From NCBI GenBank assembly GCA_052084925.1, contig JBQDEV010000015.1:7795-71794 (forward strand): 64,000 nt of DNA, given 5' to 3'. Shown one piece after another: positions 51,132 to 58,084 of the stretch; position 1 is the first letter of the stretch, and each line of letters starts with the position of its first letter. The DNA comes from Micrococcaceae bacterium (GTDB lineage Bacteria; Actinomycetota; Actinomycetes; Actinomycetales; Micrococcaceae). Under the pieces are notes generated by a model. The model was given only the letters and a program-made list of their open reading frames with translations. It had not been told where the DNA came from and ran no database searches. The position numbers were made by a program, and so were the translations under genes.

Positions 51132-51924
51132 TTCATGAACGGTATCAGCGCACGATGCGAGCAACAGTGATCGACCGCAGAATTGCCAATAGTCGGTTGA
51201 ACAGCGAATCACACTGTGTTTTCGACCCTGCACCACATCCCGTTAAGGAGTTGTCGAGAACAATTGCTACCGCGATTGACCCCCAGGTAGACGGTTCACC
51301 CCAGATCCTTGATTTTCCGGGCATCTCTGCCCCTCACACGGCCCGATTTCACGTCAAGGATTGCATGGTTTGCATGTATCAGGTCCCGGCCAGGTTCCTG
51401 CTCTTGATAGCCGACCGCAGATCCGTCAGGGGTTTACGTGGGGTTTATGAGAGGCTCGTCGCGCTCCCTCCCCCATCGTCAGGTACGACTCGAATCAAGA
51501 GCTCGGGAACACCGCCTTGAACGATGACGGCACGCGTGAATCGTTGAGACCCTTGGGCGAAGACGGAGCGAGAGACTCGGTCGAGTCCTGCCCCGCCCTT
51601 CCGATGTCACGGCATGATCTCAGACTCGATGCGCCCAACGTTCACAAGAAAGCTTGTGAACCGGTTCGCGGGAAAAGTTGTTGAGTGACGAGAAGTCGGA
51701 ACGTGAAGAGTAACGACCTGGCGTGACGTGAGCTCGTTGATGTTGCCGTCATGCGAGAGCAACGCCAGTGGGATCCGTCAATTCCTTAGCAAAAAGTGAG
51801 GGTATTGACGCATGTCAGGATCGGCGTCTTTGAACCTTTGGAAGCACTGCCACAGCGAAGTGGCGTAACACCTAATGCACCCCGTGATGACTTGCTTATC
51901 TCAGGTTGATGCAGAGTCTCTAGC

Positions 51925-52755
51925 TCAGACAGCATCCCATGCCGTGAGAAAAATAGGTTCTACCGCCTTAGACGAAAGCCCGGCTTCCTTCAGTAATTCC
52001 GCAGCCAGTGTTCCCACAAGCAACGCGACCATGTGATGCGTGCTGAGATCTCCATGCTGTATTGGCGGTGTGTCCAGACCGACCCGATCAGCTTCGGTCT
52101 TCGGCGCGTAGGCAACTGCCAGGTGTGCTGTCGCATGCGTGTACTGAGTCTCCTCACGCCAAGCGGTGTACAAGCCGAGCGTGATGGGCACTGCTTTCGC
52201 TGCGTCGGTGACGGCTTTCACCTGTTGCTTCAGGTCCTTGTCTTCCATCATGTCTGCTACGACGCTCTCCATTGCACTGAGATCGATATCGTGGTCGTAA
52301 CCCATCTCTTTAAGCGTGTCGAAGAAGCCGCTTGTGAGGTTCTTTTCTCGGGCAATGAACGTTTCGAGCACCGCCCCGCGCTTGTCTACTTCCAGCGTTC
52401 GGAGCCAGAGCAGGCGGAACGCGATCTCTGCGAATGCGCGACGGTTCGGCGCGGCCGCGTGAGCGAGCCCCTGAGCTGTCAGCGTTGCGATCACGCGGGA
52501 TTGGTCATACGCTGCCCGCATCCAGCCGATAATGAACTGAGAGTCGTACGCTGCTGGAACATAGGAGAGGTCAAGGGCCAACATTTGCTCGGCCGTCGCG
52601 ATGATGCGGGCTGCCTCTTGTTGCAGCGGGCTCAGGCGCGCCGCTCGCCGTTCCGCTTTTGCTCGCCGTCCGCTCATGCTTTCAACGTTACCCGTAGGCT
52701 GGTGCTCAGCGGGGCTTCCCCAGTTCAGTCTCCTGGCTGTTATCCGTGATGACAT
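51925..52755 (-). CDS. Hypothetical all-alpha protein, first gene downstream of the RT pair
   Basis: 276 aa (249 aa if ATG 52677 is used). No catalytic motif recognised. A helical core with GLAHAAAPNRRAFAEIAFRLLWL is vaguely reminiscent of DUF5677/AbiV-type proteins, from memory and unverified. Confidence 0.5.
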   Translation of the reverse strand: MSSRITARRLNWGSPAEHQPTGNVESMSGRRAKAERRAARLSPLQQEAARIIATAEQMLALDLSYVPAAYDSQFIIGWMRAAYDQSRVIATLTAQGLAHAAAPNRRAFAEIAFRLLWLRTLEVDKRGAVLETFIAREKNLTSGFFDTLKEMGYDHDIDLSAMESVVADMMEDKDLKQQVKAVTDAAKAVPITLGLYTAWREETQYTHATAHLAVAYAPKTEADRVGLDTPPIQHGDLSTHHMVALLVGTLAAELLKEAGLSSKAVEPIFLTAWDAV

Positions 52756-52962
52756 CGACAGCTGAGAACCCGATGCCTACCTGCACTTTGGATAGGGCCT
52801 CGACCGGTAGGGCTGAACGGATCGACCGGATCCGGGCGTTGTCAGATCTGACTCGCACCGGATTCCGTCGTATGAGAATTAGTCGGGAGTTCGATGCCGC
52901 TCGCTCCCGTGCGCCCGTGTGTCGAAGTCAATGACTCCGTGATTGCGGTCATGGCTGCGCCT

Positions 52963-55011
52963 CTAGTATACGAACTGGATCGACTTCAGGAGCAACCGTT
53001 CGTAGTAGTGCTCGCTTGCGTCCCAGGAAAACATGGACGGTGTCCTTTGGCTCGATCTGAGACTCTCAACCTGCCTCTTGGAGGCTTCCCCACCCATCGC
53101 CTTCGAGATTTCCTTCGTCGAGGCCCCGGGGAACATGGGGAGGCTAAGTAGAAGAATCGCACGAGCTGTCTCGTGCTCGGGTTGGTGACCGCCTTGCTCG
53201 ATCAGCACCCTTGCCCGATCCAGAAGCCCACGTTTTAGGGCGCTATTCGAGTCAGGGTTCTGGAACCTGCGAAGTAGAGTGAGTACGCCAAATACATCAA
53301 GGTCGCCGATCTTCTTCCCTCGACGCTCGAGGAACGATAGCAAGGTCTCCTCGGGGATCTTCGGATCTACGAATATGAGGCAGTCCAGGAGGAGTAAGGT
53401 GTGCGCTCCGAATGAAGCCTCGTCCTGCACCGCATTAAGCTGCGCAATGATCTCTCGGGCAACTTTGTCGGAAAACTGATCGGTCTCAAGCTTTCCCAAC
53501 CCGTTCACCTTCAGCTCACCCATAGAAGCTGCCACCATCCGTGTCAGTTTCACACTGTGCGACACCGAAGGAGCACCCGAGTAGATGAAGATTGCAACGT
53601 CCAAGACAGCCACAAGGTACTGAACGAGCTTCAACCGAGTTGCATGGATCGTTTTGGGATCTCCGGCTTCGACCGCCGCGTTCAGACACTTCCGGAACGC
53701 TCGGACACTCTTGTCCCTACGACGCCCGAGTTCGTACAGGTAGGAGTTTGCCAACTCACCGTGCTCAAGACCCGTATCCATGAGGAGAGCCTTGTAGTCA
53801 AGGATCGCTTTGCCGGACGGAAAGTACAGGCTGGCTTTCGTCGGTCCAATGTCGGGATCGTACTCATAGTGCGTACGCCGTTTGAGATCCTCGCGGATTC
53901 TCACCTTCGCAACAGACATATGGGATTGCAGCGGCGTATCGAAGTGACGCTGCTTCTGTTCGTTAAGGTGCAGTTTGAAGGTAGACAGCTGCGCAGCAAG
54001 AATCTCCTCGACGCGAGAAGCCATGTGAGGATCAGCCAGGAAGACGAAATAATCGTCCACGTATCGCATGACTTCGTAATTGGTCCCACGATTCAGACCA
54101 ATACTTGCCAGCTCTCGTTCGATCCTTACGTCTACTTCTTGCAGGATGATCTCAGCGAATACTCGCGAAAGCTCAGGTCCGATGATGATCCCGCTGGTCT
54201 CGGCATAGTTGACGTACTGCATGAGGTGATCAAATTTGTCGCCAAACGTTTCCTTGGTACCACGCCTATTTTTGCTGGCGCGGACGCCGTTGGTGACCCA
54301 TGAGACGGTGTGTGTATAAACGCTGTCGAAGCACTTGGAGACGTCTGCGCGCATAAGGTGGGGATATTTGCGTTCGCAGGCCTGGAATTCCGGCGACGAG
54401 TAGAAGCGGTTGATGTTGTTGTATCTACGGTAGCTGAAGTATGAGGAAACGTGCGTGTACTCGAGGTCGGATTGCTCGACGCCGTATGATTCTCGATCGA
54501 TGATGCCGTCAAAAATCGAGCTTGTCTTGGCTTGAAGTCTTGCGACCCTGTGAGGGTGCCTGATTGAGAAGCTACTTCGGTTCGTGTAATAAAGGATCGA
54601 GTCTCGGTGCTCGTGAATAAATGACGCCATTTGCACCATCGAGTGAGGGTGCGGGACCGATAGCTCTCGCGACTTTCCGTTGTTGCGTCGTGATCGGAAC
54701 TTGTAGGGGTGCCGAAGGTCGCAGTTTTTCTTGCCGCCACCACTGAGGTTGAACTCGATTGTCTTGTTGTCGTCAAGGAGGCAGCCCGAGCCTAGGCTGA
54801 TCGGATCGAAGATGAACTCGAGCCAGGATTTCTCAGCCTCACTGAGCCTCGATTTCAGTACGGTGAACTTGTTCTCTCCGGTCCAGTTGAATTTGAGCCA
54901 CCGAAGAAATTCGTATAGTCGCGTGATGTCGAATGGGATCGGCACCTCGTAGGGCAGAATCTCGGATGTCAGCGCACGTAGCGGGTCGCGCTTGGCTACG
55001 CGATACTTCAT
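52963..55011 (-). CDS. Defence-type reverse transcriptase with long helical C-terminal domain (UG/Abi class; UG8-like candidate)
   Basis: RT motifs RADVSKCFDSVYTH, SGIIIGPELSRVFAEIIL, catalytic MRYVDDYFVF, and HLNEQKQ. About 330 aa of alpha-helical C-terminus. No intron maturase or endonuclease domain. Its ATG overlaps the stop of the upstream RT (ATGA). Confidence 0.8.
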   Translation of the reverse strand: MKYRVAKRDPLRALTSEILPYEVPIPFDITRLYEFLRWLKFNWTGENKFTVLKSRLSEAEKSWLEFIFDPISLGSGCLLDDNKTIEFNLSGGGKKNCDLRHPYKFRSRRNNGKSRELSVPHPHSMVQMASFIHEHRDSILYYTNRSSFSIRHPHRVARLQAKTSSIFDGIIDRESYGVEQSDLEYTHVSSYFSYRRYNNINRFYSSPEFQACERKYPHLMRADVSKCFDSVYTHTVSWVTNGVRASKNRRGTKETFGDKFDHLMQYVNYAETSGIIIGPELSRVFAEIILQEVDVRIERELASIGLNRGTNYEVMRYVDDYFVFLADPHMASRVEEILAAQLSTFKLHLNEQKQRHFDTPLQSHMSVAKVRIREDLKRRTHYEYDPDIGPTKASLYFPSGKAILDYKALLMDTGLEHGELANSYLYELGRRRDKSVRAFRKCLNAAVEAGDPKTIHATRLKLVQYLVAVLDVAIFIYSGAPSVSHSVKLTRMVAASMGELKVNGLGKLETDQFSDKVAREIIAQLNAVQDEASFGAHTLLLLDCLIFVDPKIPEETLLSFLERRGKKIGDLDVFGVLTLLRRFQNPDSNSALKRGLLDRARVLIEQGGHQPEHETARAILLLSLPMFPGASTKEISKAMGGEASKRQVESLRSSQRTPSMFSWDASEHYYERLLLKSIQFVY

Positions 55012-56393
55012 CGAGCTCTTCCTTTCCAGATGCTCACGATCTGCTCGATTCGCTTCTGTCGGAACCTGAGAAATGTGTGGTTTGCAAACATCTCAACGAA
55101 CGAGATTTGCGCCATACGATCATTCATCTTCTTGGGCATCTTCGAGGCGTTGCTCTCGAGGAACGTTTGAAGAATCTCATCGAGTTCTGAGAGCTCATCT
55201 GCATCGGGAGCGAGCGCGCTGTTGGAGAAGTAAAGTCCGATAGCGACGTTACTCTTCGAGTTCAGGAGTTTGGTGTTTCCCGCGAGATACCGCACGCGAT
55301 CGAGGAGCAGGCCGTTGTGCCCATCGTTGGGAGAGGCTGGGTTCGGCGAGGTGTCTAACCAGACTTGCAGTGCCTTCTCAAGCCTCAAAACACGTCGCGC
55401 CTTGCGCTTTGTTGTCAGACCGGTAGTGAGACTGCCTCCGGCACGACAGAAGCGGTATCCGAGGTATTCGAGCTCCGTATTCGAAGGATAGTCTCCGCTC
55501 TCGCTGGTGACGAAATCCATCGTCTTTTCTTCGTTGAGAGCAAGCTGGAGCTCGTTCAACTCGGTAACGACTGCGTTCTTCACCTCAATGAGATGGTTCT
55601 CGCTTTCGAGGACCATGATCACGTCGTCTACATAACGTGCGTAGAACAGAACCCCTGGGTGCGTTTTTAGCTTGGAGTCGAAACGACTGAGATACAGCTC
55701 TGCGAGGTGTGAGCTGAGTCCGACGCCTCGCGGTAGCCCGATATTGGACCCTTGAAGTGCTTCGTATTCACTGAGCAAGCGATTGACAAGCTGGATGGTG
55801 ACTCTGTCGAGATCGGCATAAATGGCAAGGCGTTCAGTGAGCACGCTGTGGGGTATGGACTCGAAGAACTCCTTGACATCAACTTTGTAGATGGCATGGA
55901 GATACCCCTTACCGAGAGCTGCCTGGAGTGCTCGCACGATGCTGTTGCGGCTGGGGGCGTCTAATCGTGCAGCGCGCTTGACAGCATCTGCCGCTTGCTT
56001 CGCAGGGTAAGCGATGTACGTCTCAGGGGCGATGCGATAGGTGCGTCTCTGCTTGGGCCCAACCCGGGGACCTTCTCTTAGAGCAAATGTGAACTCGTCT
56101 GCGGACAGCCGTTCTTCAAATTCGAGAAGAGCCTTTTGCATGGCCGCTTCAACAGCCTCGTCGCGTTCTTTACGCAGTTCTTGCCTGTCTTCGCTGTAGT
56201 TTTTTCGTGCGTCGTCGCGAGCCTGTTTGTCTTCAAGTCGAGTGATCTCCTCCAGAAATCGCTCGCGCCTCTCTCGTAACGCCCGGGTCACACGTCGAAC
56301 GTGCGGGTCAATGCGGCTGATGTCCCGCCCACGGCGGTTCTCACTCTCGGCCAGCTCGATGAAGCTGCGAAGCGTGTACGGGATTTTCTTCAC
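55008..56393 (-). CDS. Defence-type reverse transcriptase (UG/Abi class; UG3-like candidate)
   Basis: RT motifs KVDVKEFFESIPH, IGLPRGVGLSSHLAELYL, catalytic YARYVDDVIMV, and ALNEEKT. Charged coiled-coil-like N-terminus. I prefer GTG 56393 (GAGG 7 nt upstream) over the tracked 56486. Confidence 0.8.
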   Translation of the reverse strand: MKKIPYTLRSFIELAESENRRGRDISRIDPHVRRVTRALRERRERFLEEITRLEDKQARDDARKNYSEDRQELRKERDEAVEAAMQKALLEFEERLSADEFTFALREGPRVGPKQRRTYRIAPETYIAYPAKQAADAVKRAARLDAPSRNSIVRALQAALGKGYLHAIYKVDVKEFFESIPHSVLTERLAIYADLDRVTIQLVNRLLSEYEALQGSNIGLPRGVGLSSHLAELYLSRFDSKLKTHPGVLFYARYVDDVIMVLESENHLIEVKNAVVTELNELQLALNEEKTMDFVTSESGDYPSNTELEYLGYRFCRAGGSLTTGLTTKRKARRVLRLEKALQVWLDTSPNPASPNDGHNGLLLDRVRYLAGNTKLLNSKSNVAIGLYFSNSALAPDADELSELDEILQTFLESNASKMPKKMNDRMAQISFVEMFANHTFLRFRQKRIEQIVSIWKGRAR

Positions 56394-56537
56394 GAAGCTA
56401 CCTCGATCCTCGATCTGCCCCCAGGAACACAGATGTGGACGTGAGCGAACAGAGACTCTCGCCGCTGTTGCTTGGCGTCCCACCACTCTGCACTGGGTGC
56501 TTCCGTCCCAGCGCTCCTCAACTCAACCGCTGCGGGC

Positions 56538-57509
56538 TCAGTCATCGACGTCCTCCTTACGGCTACGGTGAGACCGGTCATCGCGCACGCTCTCAGCGCT
56601 TATTGCACCCGCAGCTTCCCAGGCGTGAGAGGCAGGGATCCATCGCAGATCAGAGACGTCGTCCACGATGGCGGGCTCCGCGAAGGCCACACACGTTTTG
56701 AGCAGATCGTCAAATCTCTCTGGCGTGGACTGTTCAAGCCGCTGTTTCCTTCGCCAGATCCCCCACTTCCGCTGCGCCAGGGCAGGCATCCCCGAAAGGA
56801 GCAGGGAGAGTTCCTCAAGCTCAACCTGACGATAGCGAGCAACAACACCGATCGCCTCTTGGAGGTCCGTACCTTCAACGGTTCGGCTCCGGGCGATCGC
56901 GGCGATGTCGGTGAATTCGCGCCAACGTGTGTTCTGCTCACCGCGTTCGAGCGCGGTGACGATCTTCTCCGCGAGCACCATGTGATCGGGATATCCCAGG
57001 AGCCGCAGTGTCCCACCCAAAAGGAGTGGGAGGACCGCTTCTGTGGGTGCAGGCCAGATCGGGTCACCGAAGTTCACATCAATGTGCAGCGCAACCTGTG
57101 CTGTTGACAGCCGGGCAGTTATCTTGACCCGCACGCCGTTGTAGTCTGCTTCGTCACGGATCTGCTCTCCGCTGACGGAGTTCTCATCGAATTCGAGCCC
57201 GTCGTTACGCTGGACCGCGAGGATGTTGCAGACGCGCTGTTCGACCTCGGAGATGTCGTTCGTGAACCCTCGCGCGGCGAAATCGATGTCTCGCGTCGGT
57301 CGGCGTTCGGCGAACGCTGCCAAGAGCACGCCGCCCTTGAGGACAAAGTCTGCGGCGGACTCCGATGCTGCCAGCCGTGCGAGAAAACCTTCCAGCGCAT
57401 AGAGGGTGATGTATTCAGCAGGGTCACGGTTCTGCCGCCGGGCGAGGTTGCGCAGATCGTTGTATGCGCGCCCTGCTGGTGTATCTCTGGAGGGTGTCGG
57501 GGGCGTCAC
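56538..57509 (-). CDS. AbiEii/AbiGii-family nucleotidyltransferase toxin (type IV TA, DUF1814)
   Basis: LKGGVLLAAFAERRPTRDIDFAA ... YNGVRVKITARL ... HIDVNFGDP. GTG 57509 overlaps the AbiEi stop (GTGA). An alternative start is the internal ATG at 57560. Confidence 0.8.
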   Translation of the reverse strand: MTPPTPSRDTPAGRAYNDLRNLARRQNRDPAEYITLYALEGFLARLAASESAADFVLKGGVLLAAFAERRPTRDIDFAARGFTNDISEVEQRVCNILAVQRNDGLEFDENSVSGEQIRDEADYNGVRVKITARLSTAQVALHIDVNFGDPIWPAPTEAVLPLLLGGTLRLLGYPDHMVLAEKIVTALERGEQNTRWREFTDIAAIARSRTVEGTDLQEAIGVVARYRQVELEELSLLLSGMPALAQRKWGIWRRKQRLEQSTPERFDDLLKTCVAFAEPAIVDDVSDLRWIPASHAWEAAGAISAESVRDDRSHRSRKEDVDD

Positions 57510-58084
57510 AGGAGCACCTCCAGTGCTTGACGTATCCGAGGCAATGCTTTCGGGAACCATCCTGCAACCTTGAGTAGCCGCGCGGGCGTGTTTCCTCTCC
57601 GGCGAAGCCACCGTCTCAACGCCTCGTGTGCGACATCGCTGCCTTCTTGGTGCATGAGCCGGAAGCAGTCGACGATGGTCCGCTCCGCCGAATAGATAGC
57701 AACCCCTGCTCCTTCTCCGGCGTCAACGTGTTCTCGTCCGATCTGAAAGGTCTTCGGGTCGAAGCTATGCCAACTTACGTTCTTCAGCCCGGCTGGCTGG
57801 TGGGTTCCGCGTGGCAACGCGATGTCGGAAGCGAAAGGGATCGCATCGCTCAGATCATGGTGCACGAGAGCGCTCGTCAGGCACAGTGTCGCGTCGTCGC
57901 GCAACGCGGTCGCAGCGGCGAGCGCAGTGAAGGCTGGCGGGATGGCCTCAGGTCGCACGTAGACGCCACGCCCCACGCGCTCGATCTCGTCACGGTCGAG
58001 CAGCGAGTAGACCTGGTCCTTGCTGAGCCCCGCTGCGCGCGCGTCCTCCAGCGTGAACGCAGCAGCAAGCTCGTTCTTCGACAC
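57506..58084 (-). CDS. AbiEi-family antitoxin/transcriptional regulator
   Basis: N-terminal wHTH (FTLEDARAAGLSKDQVYSLLDRDEIERVGRGVYV) plus an AbiEi_4-type C-terminal domain. GTG 58084 is preceded by AGGAGG. Confidence 0.8.
   Translation of the reverse strand: MSKNELAAAFTLEDARAAGLSKDQVYSLLDRDEIERVGRGVYVRPEAIPPAFTALAAATALRDDATLCLTSALVHHDLSDAIPFASDIALPRGTHQPAGLKNVSWHSFDPKTFQIGREHVDAGEGAGVAIYSAERTIVDCFRLMHQEGSDVAHEALRRWLRRRGNTPARLLKVAGWFPKALPRIRQALEVLL

Follow-up and report, generated by a model that had tools for sequence, protein, structure and literature searches.

Recent interest in the DRT3 anti-phage systems comes from their two reverse transcriptases (RTs), of which one writes DNA from a protein template and the other copies a six-nucleotide RNA template. 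To our knowledge, all mechanistic work on DRT3 to date has been carried out on the Escherichia coli system, with its RNA of 161 nt. The source of this system (EcoDRT3) was E. coli ECOR12 (Gao et al. 2020; Wang, Yoneyama et al. 2026; Deng et al. 2026 via PMC13314766). The essential non-coding RNA (ncRNA) of DRT3 is cis-encoded directly downstream of drt3b (bioRxiv 10.64898/2026.05.04.722794; PMC9226505). In E. coli it is 161 nt long and carries ACACAC at nt 113–118 (Table S3, bioRxiv 10.64898/2026.05.04.722794); this conserved 5'-ACACAC-3' loop is the template from which Drt3a produces poly(dTdG), and both defence and product were lost when it was mutated (bioRxiv 10.64898/2026.05.04.722794). 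Drt3b produces poly(dCdA) by a protein-primed and protein-templated route, and the poly(dTdG) and poly(dCdA) strands anneal to double-stranded DNA (bioRxiv 10.64898/2026.05.04.722794; review PMC13314766). In the published DRT3 work, E22 and R241 of E. coli Drt3b are the protein-templating residues and the C-terminal Y666 is the priming tyrosine. The E. coli ncRNA, as defined by RIP-seq, starts at the first base of its closing helix P1, 15 nt past the drt3b stop codon, and the published covariance model of the E. coli-type DRT3 ncRNA was derived from 41 systems.

Downstream RNAs in other groups were surveyed by Mestre et al. 2022 (PMC9226505). In the searched text of that paper, a 'CACACA'-like motif is described downstream of UG8 in groups of Proteobacteria and Firmicutes (groups 1–17), the Terrabacteria UG8 groups are given as lacking downstream conservation, with the RNA placed upstream of UG8, and actinobacteria are not named among the CACACA groups. 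For the phylum of the element described here, the same text, which belongs to the sole published survey, reports no conserved downstream RNA. Neither the DRT3 review (PMC13314766) nor the preprint of Wang, Yoneyama et al. (bioRxiv 10.64898/2026.05.04.722794) speaks of pseudoknots, and the matches listed by a literature search for DRT3 with 'pseudoknot' concern DRT2 and DRT10.

The locus compared here lies on the minus strand of the window, by which is meant the whole stretch of 64 kb that was analysed. The gene order on this strand is AbiEii (56538–57611), a UG3-type RT, a UG8-type RT, a spacer of 207 nt and an ORF of 276 aa (51925–52755). The two RT genes are as follows.

55008–56486, minus strand: drt3a (UG3, class 2 RT), coordinates of the longest ORF, probable start near 56393; PADLOC Drt3a 1e-86, Pfam RVT_1.
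52963–55011, minus strand: drt3b (UG8, class 1 RT), 682 aa, ending in ...FVY-stop; PADLOC Drt3b 9e-148 over its full length, Pfam RVT_1.

In these coordinates both genes overlap by 4 nt. The active site of Drt3a is intact, its RYVDD aligning with SRYVDD of E. coli, and in Drt3b the residues E22, R115 (R71 of E. coli), R283 (R241 of E. coli) and YVDD are all aligned with those of E. coli Drt3b. Among 26 Drt3b homologues E22, R115, R283 and the C-terminal tyrosine Y682 are invariant, and the ending VY* is present in 14/14 Drt3b proteins of the clade to which the window belongs. The locus is a canonical DRT3 system, encoded on the minus strand as Drt3a/UG3 followed by Drt3b/UG8.

The stop codon of drt3b occupies positions 52965–52963 and the next minus-strand ORF begins at ATG 52755 or, alternatively, at ATG 52677; the earlier note on this DNA had given the gap as 207 or 285 nt, respectively, with coordinates that are correct. 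It had also seen no credible ORF in the gap, in agreement with our results, as only short, unconserved ORFs of 36–62 aa cross the spacer. One of them, an ORF of 36 aa starting at the ATG of CCATGACC, was rejected because this ATG is missing in the relatives L097, L099, L100 and L101. The downstream ORF of 276 aa was considered as a third DRT3 component and discarded, since tblastn found no homologue of it in 104 DRT3 loci; it has no match in Pfam or PADLOC. The third component of the DRT3 system is the ncRNA, and in this genome the spacer, instead of the downstream ORF of unknown function, can be annotated as such.

The hexamer ACACAC, overlooked in the earlier note, is found 40 nt past the drt3b stop codon, within the minus-strand sequence GACACACGGG.

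52917–52922, minus strand: template 5'-ACACAC-3', invariant in 18/18 loci of the clade and unpaired in the minimum free energy (MFE) fold.

The hexamer is rare in the window, with 12 occurrences on both strands versus 26.7 expected, and by our estimate the chance of finding it on the right strand 31–45 nt after the drt3b stop codon is about 0.001. In each of the 14 loci examined from genomes and plasmids it follows drt3b, at 40–221 nt from the stop codon; among them are those of E. coli, Vibrio, Bacteroides, Zymomonas, Enterobacter, Novosphingobium, Acetobacter and Phaeobacter. Among metagenomic DRT3 loci it was found in 75/78, at 24–117 nt past the stop codon, and the three loci lacking it have only 78–111 nt of downstream sequence. 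The offset is 24–43 nt in 69/75 of these metagenomic loci, many of them near-duplicates, so that the E. coli model system, with its offset of 128 nt, is the unusual one.

The spacer had been described as structured, a statement that holds for local hairpins but not for the whole, as the energy of the entire spacer is within chance and the last 65 nt are unstructured. The fold z-scores against shuffled sequences were −0.76 for 52756–52965 and −1.57 for 52815–52962. Since folding of the whole spacer as a single sequence was no better than that of the shuffles, structure was judged comparatively. The three local structures cited in the earlier note are present in the sequence: CGGGAG-CGAGCGGCATCGAA-CTCCCG at 52909–52884 (dG −12.4 kcal/mol, z −2.3); the palindrome GTCAGATCTGAC at 52852–52841, which caps a long imperfect hairpin (52870–52823); and CGGATC..GATCCG at 52834–52818. 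The last one overlaps the 3' arm of the long hairpin and is therefore an alternative pairing and not a third element. As parts of an ncRNA they fared differently: the first is a stem-loop of the conserved RNA (SL-B, below), and the palindrome and the CGGATC repeat belong to a hairpin that is not conserved.

Conservation was assessed in 17 related actinobacterial loci and is restricted to the first ~80 nt past the drt3b stop codon (about 52958–52884). Five of these loci are genome relatives (L001–L005: two Microbacterium, Aurantimicrobium, Brevibacterium and Gulosibacter) with Drt3b proteins 73–82% identical, in which similarity extends from the stop codon through GCAGCCATGA..., ACACACGGGCGC and GGGAGCGAGCGGCATCGAACTCCC and is absent thereafter. 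Eleven more loci, obtained via exact-protein look-ups (Drt3b 39–71% identical), and the metagenomic locus L014 (41%) have the same plan of the block; more distant actinobacterial homologues (30–38% identity), from Leifsonia, Nocardiopsis, Agromyces and Cellulosimicrobium, lie outside the alignment. Members of the clade are actinobacterial, from Microbacterium, Brevibacterium, Aurantimicrobium, Gulosibacter, Scrofimicrobium and Actinomycetaceae.

A covariance model (R1) was built from 13 loci with nested helices only. Its sole match in the window was 52875–52965 on the minus strand, with 86 bits and an E value of 2e-18, and it recovered five loci absent from its seed, giving an alignment of 18 sequences. 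The model matched neither the E. coli locus (L006) nor any non-actinobacterial locus or other DRT3 subfamily. The covariation analysis of homologous loci that had been suggested in the earlier note was carried out on this alignment: 97.9% of the cells are paired, changes on both sides occur at 12/19 pairs, and none of 500 shuffles reached the observed values (0/500). When the registers were slid, only 29–51% of the cells of the whole fold were paired. Twelve G–U cells fit the minus strand only.

These results support the proposal that the spacer 3' of the second RT is the cis ncRNA locus of DRT3, since ACACAC lies inside a block of ~80 nt that is conserved and covaries across the 18 loci; the position that the earlier note gave for the DRT3 ncRNA, 3' of the second RT, agrees with the literature (bioRxiv 10.64898/2026.05.04.722794; PMC9226505). 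As for the extent, the first ~80 of the 207 nt are conserved and the remainder of the spacer is outside the conserved RNA. The weaker alternative offered by the same note, the region upstream of the first RT gene (56394–56537), was not borne out: it contains no ACACAC and the covariance model has no second match in the window. A permissive Rfam scan of 51500–57000 gave only four matches, all at chance level and none of them in the spacer, Rfam 15 having no matching family. No promoter-like site was detected in a sigma-70 scan.

The elements of the fold predicted from the comparative data are listed below, from 5' to 3' on the minus strand; the template lies between SL-A and P1b.

52953–52958, minus strand: P1a, GCAGCC, 5' strand of the closing helix, with A52956 bulged; pairs with GGCGC at 52915–52911.
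52945–52952, minus strand: PKa box, ATGACCGC, directly 3' of P1a; complementary to the SL-B loop GCGGCAT.
52924–52938, minus strand: SL-A, GGAGTC-ATT-GACTTC, predicted template-boundary hairpin, adjoining the template on its 5' side.
52911–52915, minus strand: P1b, GGCGC, 3' strand of the closing helix, 1 nt past the template; conserved in 17/18 loci of the clade.
52884–52909, minus strand: SL-B, CGGGAG-CGA-GCGGCA-TCG-AA-CTCCCG, outer stem of 5–6 bp, inner stem of 3 bp, AA bulged.

In this fold the P1 ring holds SL-A and the single-stranded ACACAC, and a pseudoknot between ATGACCGC and the SL-B hexaloop locks the ring. The template is placed in a loop, has a stem-loop on its 5' side and is enclosed by a helix that links the 5' end with sequence lying past the template; the fold of the E. 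coli ncRNA has this topology as well. The 5' end of the ncRNA is predicted at or just before P1a, near 52958–52962.

P1 (GC-N-GCC with GGCGC) has 98.9% of its cells paired over the 18 loci; its paired bases are near-invariant and the bulged base is A, G or T. In L102, P1b is GGCC and the upstream strand is GGCT, so that pairing is preserved. Because P1 is almost invariant, covariation gives no proof of this helix within the clade. An alternative P1, in which GCGC (52960–52957) pairs with GCGC as in the MFE fold, was rejected because the upstream GCGC is unconserved (GATGC in L002 and L004, TAGC in L005). A hairpin ending 0–4 nt before the template is present in 16/18 loci, with different sequences (GAAGCC/GGCTTC, GGATCC/GGATCC), and SL-A is replaced by a 7-nt linker in the other two (2/18). 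SL-B has 99.3% of its cells paired, with compensatory changes at 8/8 modelled pairs.

The hexaloop of SL-B (PKb, 52900–52894) and the PKa box form 7 bp and leave A52949 bulged. This pseudoknot, of an ATGACGC-like box with the SL-B hexaloop, played no part in fitting the alignment; it is 94.8% paired and has compensatory changes at 3/6 pairs. There are 9 compensatory cells versus 2.0 ± 1.1 in the shuffles, and the paired fraction, the compensatory-cell count and the covariation score were each reached by 0/500 shuffles; with slid registers, 13–72% of the cells were paired. In L097 one nucleotide has been lost in the box and in the loop alike, a correlated change, and within the clade the SL-B loops bind their own upstream box better than the boxes of other loci (p about 0.009, duplex-energy permutation). 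T52894 is common to the pseudoknot and to the inner 3-bp stem of SL-B; this, and the possible steric strain of a fully paired hexaloop, suggest that pseudoknot and inner stem may alternate.

The helices also bear on the possibility that no functional RNA is encoded at all, the block being a 3' UTR, a terminator or the cassette boundary of a mobile DRT3 module, with ACACAC incidental. Conservation does end where the flanking genes change, as would be expected at the edge of a cassette, but two helices are maintained by compensatory changes and by a correlated indel, ACACAC is an invariant feature of this position across phyla, the hexamer is rare in the window, and it is experimentally required in E. 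coli. This explanation is regarded as very improbable.

On these grounds we consider, with a probability of about 0.85, that the region at about 52958–52884 on the minus strand encodes the ncRNA of a canonical DRT3 (UG3 + UG8) anti-phage system, in a ring fold locked by a pseudoknot. The predicted element is thus a DRT3 ncRNA, that is, an RNA of a known and experimentally characterised kind, in a compact and structurally distinct actinobacterial variant.

Beyond SL-B, the spacer contains three further segments.

52871–52883, minus strand: ACTAATTCTCATA, pyrimidine-rich tail past SL-B and one candidate for the 3' end of the ncRNA.
52823–52870, minus strand: long imperfect hairpin of 48 nt with GTCAGATCTGAC and one CGGATC arm; dG −25.5 kcal/mol, z −2.8 and −2.4.
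52756–52822, minus strand: remainder of the spacer, unstructured and unconserved; fold z +0.57 (52820–52756).

A weakly conserved AATTCTY-like tract is shared by the window and the loci L094, L095 and L104. The hairpin at 52870–52823 was not called in a simple terminator scan because it has no T run, and its sequence is not conserved in L001–L005. It lies outside the conserved core and probably terminates the operon or provides another 3' end for the ncRNA, and the remainder of the spacer presumably serves the downstream ORF as leader or promoter region.

This region is where a different extent of the RNA has to be weighed, namely a single long structured ncRNA made up of all 207 nt of the spacer, with the hairpin and the palindrome (52870–52823) as scaffold domains. 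The long hairpin does fold better than its shuffles (z −2.8 and −2.4), the E. coli ncRNA reaches 161 nt with a hairpin at its end, and a strong hairpin follows directly after SL-B in seven loci of the clade. However, these seven loci are the more distant ones and their hairpins (z −3 to −5.3) resemble ordinary, canonical terminators with T runs, whereas the five closest relatives, in which conservation stops at the end of SL-B, have nothing significant at this position (z −0.35 to −1.9). Furthermore, 52820–52756 is unstructured (z +0.57), and in L098 and in the other DRT3 subfamily described below the T run follows the pseudoknot-bearing hairpin itself. An ncRNA of the whole spacer is therefore considered unlikely. 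For the compact RNA, the terminal hairpin of the other subfamily and the ATTTTTT located directly 3' of SL-B in L098 suggest that it may end shortly after 52884, in which case the long hairpin would act as a terminator or as a back-up for one. The RNA may also reach about 52871, or the end of the hairpin at 52823.

At the opposite end, the RNA could be as large as that of E. coli if it reached 5' into the coding sequence of drt3b, making the 3' end of the gene dual-coding. The E. coli RNA has about 112 nt before the template, compared with 40 nt from stop codon to template here, and the share of identical codons at same-amino-acid pairs is slightly higher over the last 20 codons (0.49 vs 0.40 ± 0.05). 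This rise is weak (about 2 SD), it is equalled elsewhere in the gene (0.52–0.54 at codons 181–210), and it could also stem from the invariant ...VY priming tail at the C-terminus; codon-level conservation being barely raised, an extension into the gene is unsupported and was rejected. Moreover, P1a lies 4–8 nt past the stop codon in both subfamilies, the E. coli RNA starts at the first base of its P1, and a complete closed fold is possible with no coding sequence. A dual-coding 3' end is accordingly held to be quite improbable, even less probable than an ncRNA of the whole spacer, and the compact RNA beginning near P1a is preferred.

By analogy with the E. coli system, Drt3a would bind the compact ncRNA and copy ACACAC repeatedly into poly(dTdG), and SL-A would keep it from reading past the template's 5' edge. 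Drt3b would make poly(dCdA), primed on Tyr682 and with the conserved E22 and R283 as templating residues. Both strands would then anneal to a poly(GT/AC) duplex DNA, the accumulation of which would underlie defence; the duplex is expected to build up when a phage disables duplex degradation. The trigger in E. coli, inhibition of RecBCD by Gam, may not transfer to an actinobacterium. More speculatively, P1 and the pseudoknot ring might position the template as in the template-pseudoknot core of telomerase.

With respect to EcoDRT3, the window RNA is likewise cis-encoded on the same strand directly after drt3b and has an invariant single-stranded 5'-ACACAC-3', a stem-loop right 5' of this template, a helix P1 in which the 5' end of the RNA pairs with sequence just past the template, a hairpin that follows on the 3' side, and protein partners whose catalytic, templating and priming residues agree with those of E. 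coli. They differ in size (161 nt in E. coli, a core of about 80 nt here), in the position of the template (128 nt versus 40 nt past the stop codon), in the length 5' of the template (about 112 nt versus about 36 nt) and in the stem-loops inside the ring, three in the E. coli MFE fold and one, sometimes none, here. The loop of the 3' hairpin forms a covarying pseudoknot in the window RNA, whereas the GAAA loop of the E. coli terminator has no such partner, and there is no alignable sequence similarity between both RNAs. By eye, UGCGA past P1a of the E. coli RNA and the UCGCG loop of the stem-loop preceding its template form a candidate pairing that may be an equivalent tertiary contact. Four features set the element apart from the E. 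coli RNA, namely its size, the number of internal stem-loops, the pseudoknot and the unalignable sequence.

The 'CACACA' RNAs of Mestre et al. 2022 (PMC9226505) share with the window RNA, in the searched text of that paper, the order UG3–UG8–ncRNA, an exposed CACACA-like motif, and a group-specific sequence with conserved structure. In that text the canonical architecture is one of Proteobacteria and Firmicutes, whereas the actinobacterial clade of the window also has a canonical downstream RNA; this clade is either absent from the set of Mestre et al. or contradicts the statement on Terrabacteria found there.

A second, larger metagenomic subfamily of DRT3 loci shows the order P1 (GGCGCT/AGCGCC), hairpin, ACACAC, P1', extra hairpin and terminal hairpin, the latter often followed by a T run. 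P1 covaries in this subfamily (independent MAFFT alignment of 17 loci). The strand directly after P1a (for example CCGCTC or CCGTCT) forms with the terminal-hairpin loop (GAGCGG or AGACGG) a pseudoknot that is 98% paired, with 4/6 pairs compensatory, in the 17 loci. In addition, an alignment-free test of 50 non-redundant loci, with own partners set against swapped ones, supports a complementarity specific to each locus that links the first 30 nt past the stop codon with the region 3' of P1b; the p values were 0.027 and 0.006 after GC stratification, with 0.12 for the reversed-sequence control. The unstratified result (p < 5e-5) was discarded as partly an artefact of GC content. Given this shared layout, SL-B of the window is the counterpart of the 3'-terminal hairpin with which other DRT3 RNAs form their pseudoknot. 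The homology of the window RNA with the E. coli and other-subfamily RNAs rests on position, motif and layout and not on alignable sequence.

On balance, we favour the view that most DRT3 ncRNAs share a compact, telomerase-like template core that the E. coli model RNA does not represent. The proposed core consists of P1, a pseudoknot strand directly after P1a, and, as the partner of this strand, the loop of a 3'-terminal hairpin that is often a terminator. If so, the actinobacterial RNA of ~80 nt would be the minimal natural form, the 161-nt RNA of E. coli would be an atypical, expanded version, and the published claim that Terrabacteria DRT3 have no conserved downstream RNA would be overturned.

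Telomerase RNA possesses a template-pseudoknot core. It resembles the window RNA, as do the ncRNAs of DRT10 and DRT9, in a short template loop copied repeatedly into tandem-repeat DNA, in a 5' stem-loop acting as template boundary, and in a closing helix and a pseudoknot around the template. They differ in the RT partner, which is UG17, UG28 or TERT and not UG3, and DRT3 is further distinguished by its dinucleotide repeat and by a second, protein-templated RT. This likeness is functional and no membership is claimed.

The actinobacterial DRT3 loci present the same ACACAC template in a predicted RNA of about half the E. coli size, with a layout of closing helix and covarying pseudoknot that recurs in the commonest metagenomic DRT3 subfamily. 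Structural and biochemical studies could use the compact RNA as a minimal natural scaffold, it offers concrete base pairs for compensatory mutagenesis, and its alignment could be used as the seed of a covariance model for DRT3 RNAs missed by current models (Rfam and E. coli-based).

Sequencing runs were also searched for the locus. None of the RNA runs contains the spacer, two of them matching only about 200 nt inside drt3b; the metatranscriptomes of the same study gave no match, and a search for RNA runs with the Brevibacterium relative (L003) returned none. The runs that contain the window are DNA metagenomes, mostly labelled as food or food fermentation.

In the commonest DRT3 subfamily (alignment A6, a MAFFT alignment of 17 loci of the second, larger metagenomic subfamily, with L071, L025, L031, L054 and L040 among them), the loop of the terminal hairpin was complementary to the strand directly 3' of P1a, the 5' strand of the closing helix P1. 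This pairing was 98% complete, and compensatory changes were present in 4 of its 6 pairs. The terminal hairpin was often followed by a T run, for which reason it is probably a terminator, and its loop would thus double as the pseudoknot partner.

A possible counterpart of the pseudoknot was noticed by eye in the following RNA.

L006:4001-4161, ncRNA of the E. coli DRT3 locus

In this RNA, UGCGA adjoins the 3' side of P1a and could form 5 bp with UCGCG, a stretch of the apical loop that caps the stem-loop before the template; this pair might be the E. coli equivalent. The ACACAC template of the E. coli model system lies 128 nt past the drt3b stop, whereas this offset was 24-43 nt in 69 of 75 metagenomic DRT3 loci from the L014-L093 set, numerous near-duplicates being included in the 69, which indicates that the RNA of the model system is atypically long.

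A DRT3 RNA from the window's own clade retained the layout with different sequences.

L102:3238-3350, DRT3 RNA of an Actinomycetaceae locus

Its P1 is GGCT/GGCC and its pseudoknot pairs CTGAGGC with GCCTCAG (7 bp). It was not detected by R1, the covariance model of the ncRNA in the actinobacterial clade, showing how fast the RNA drifts in sequence with its predicted fold retained.

Where paired codons specify the same amino acid, their identity was slightly higher over the last 20 codons of drt3b (window 52963-53022, minus strand) than across the gene as a whole, 0.49 vs a mean of 0.40. VY directly precedes the stop codon in each of the 14 clade Drt3b proteins, in agreement with the priming Tyr reported at the C terminus in E. 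coli DRT3. A simple terminator scan returned one site, which lies within the drt3b coding sequence; one such site is in the range expected by chance (0.6 ± 0.9).

Window 53159-53176, minus strand, terminator-like site, GCACGAG-ACAG-CTCGTGC then GATTCTTCTA

The locus is bordered by two genes.

Window 51925-52755, minus strand, 276-aa ORF 3' of the spacer
Window 56538-57611, minus strand, AbiEii toxin gene (PADLOC 7.6e-79, Pfam PF08843)

The 276-aa ORF had no match in Pfam or PADLOC, and its homologues were absent from the flanks of all 104 DRT3 loci; judged by these comparisons, it is not a conserved DRT3 component. The AbiEii gene adjoins drt3a on the upstream side in the same orientation, and the DRT3 locus is situated in a defence island. 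DNA identical to window 52400-56600 was present in about 10 public metagenome runs, mostly labelled as food or food fermentation, and therefore the host is probably a fermented-food or cheese-associated actinobacterium.
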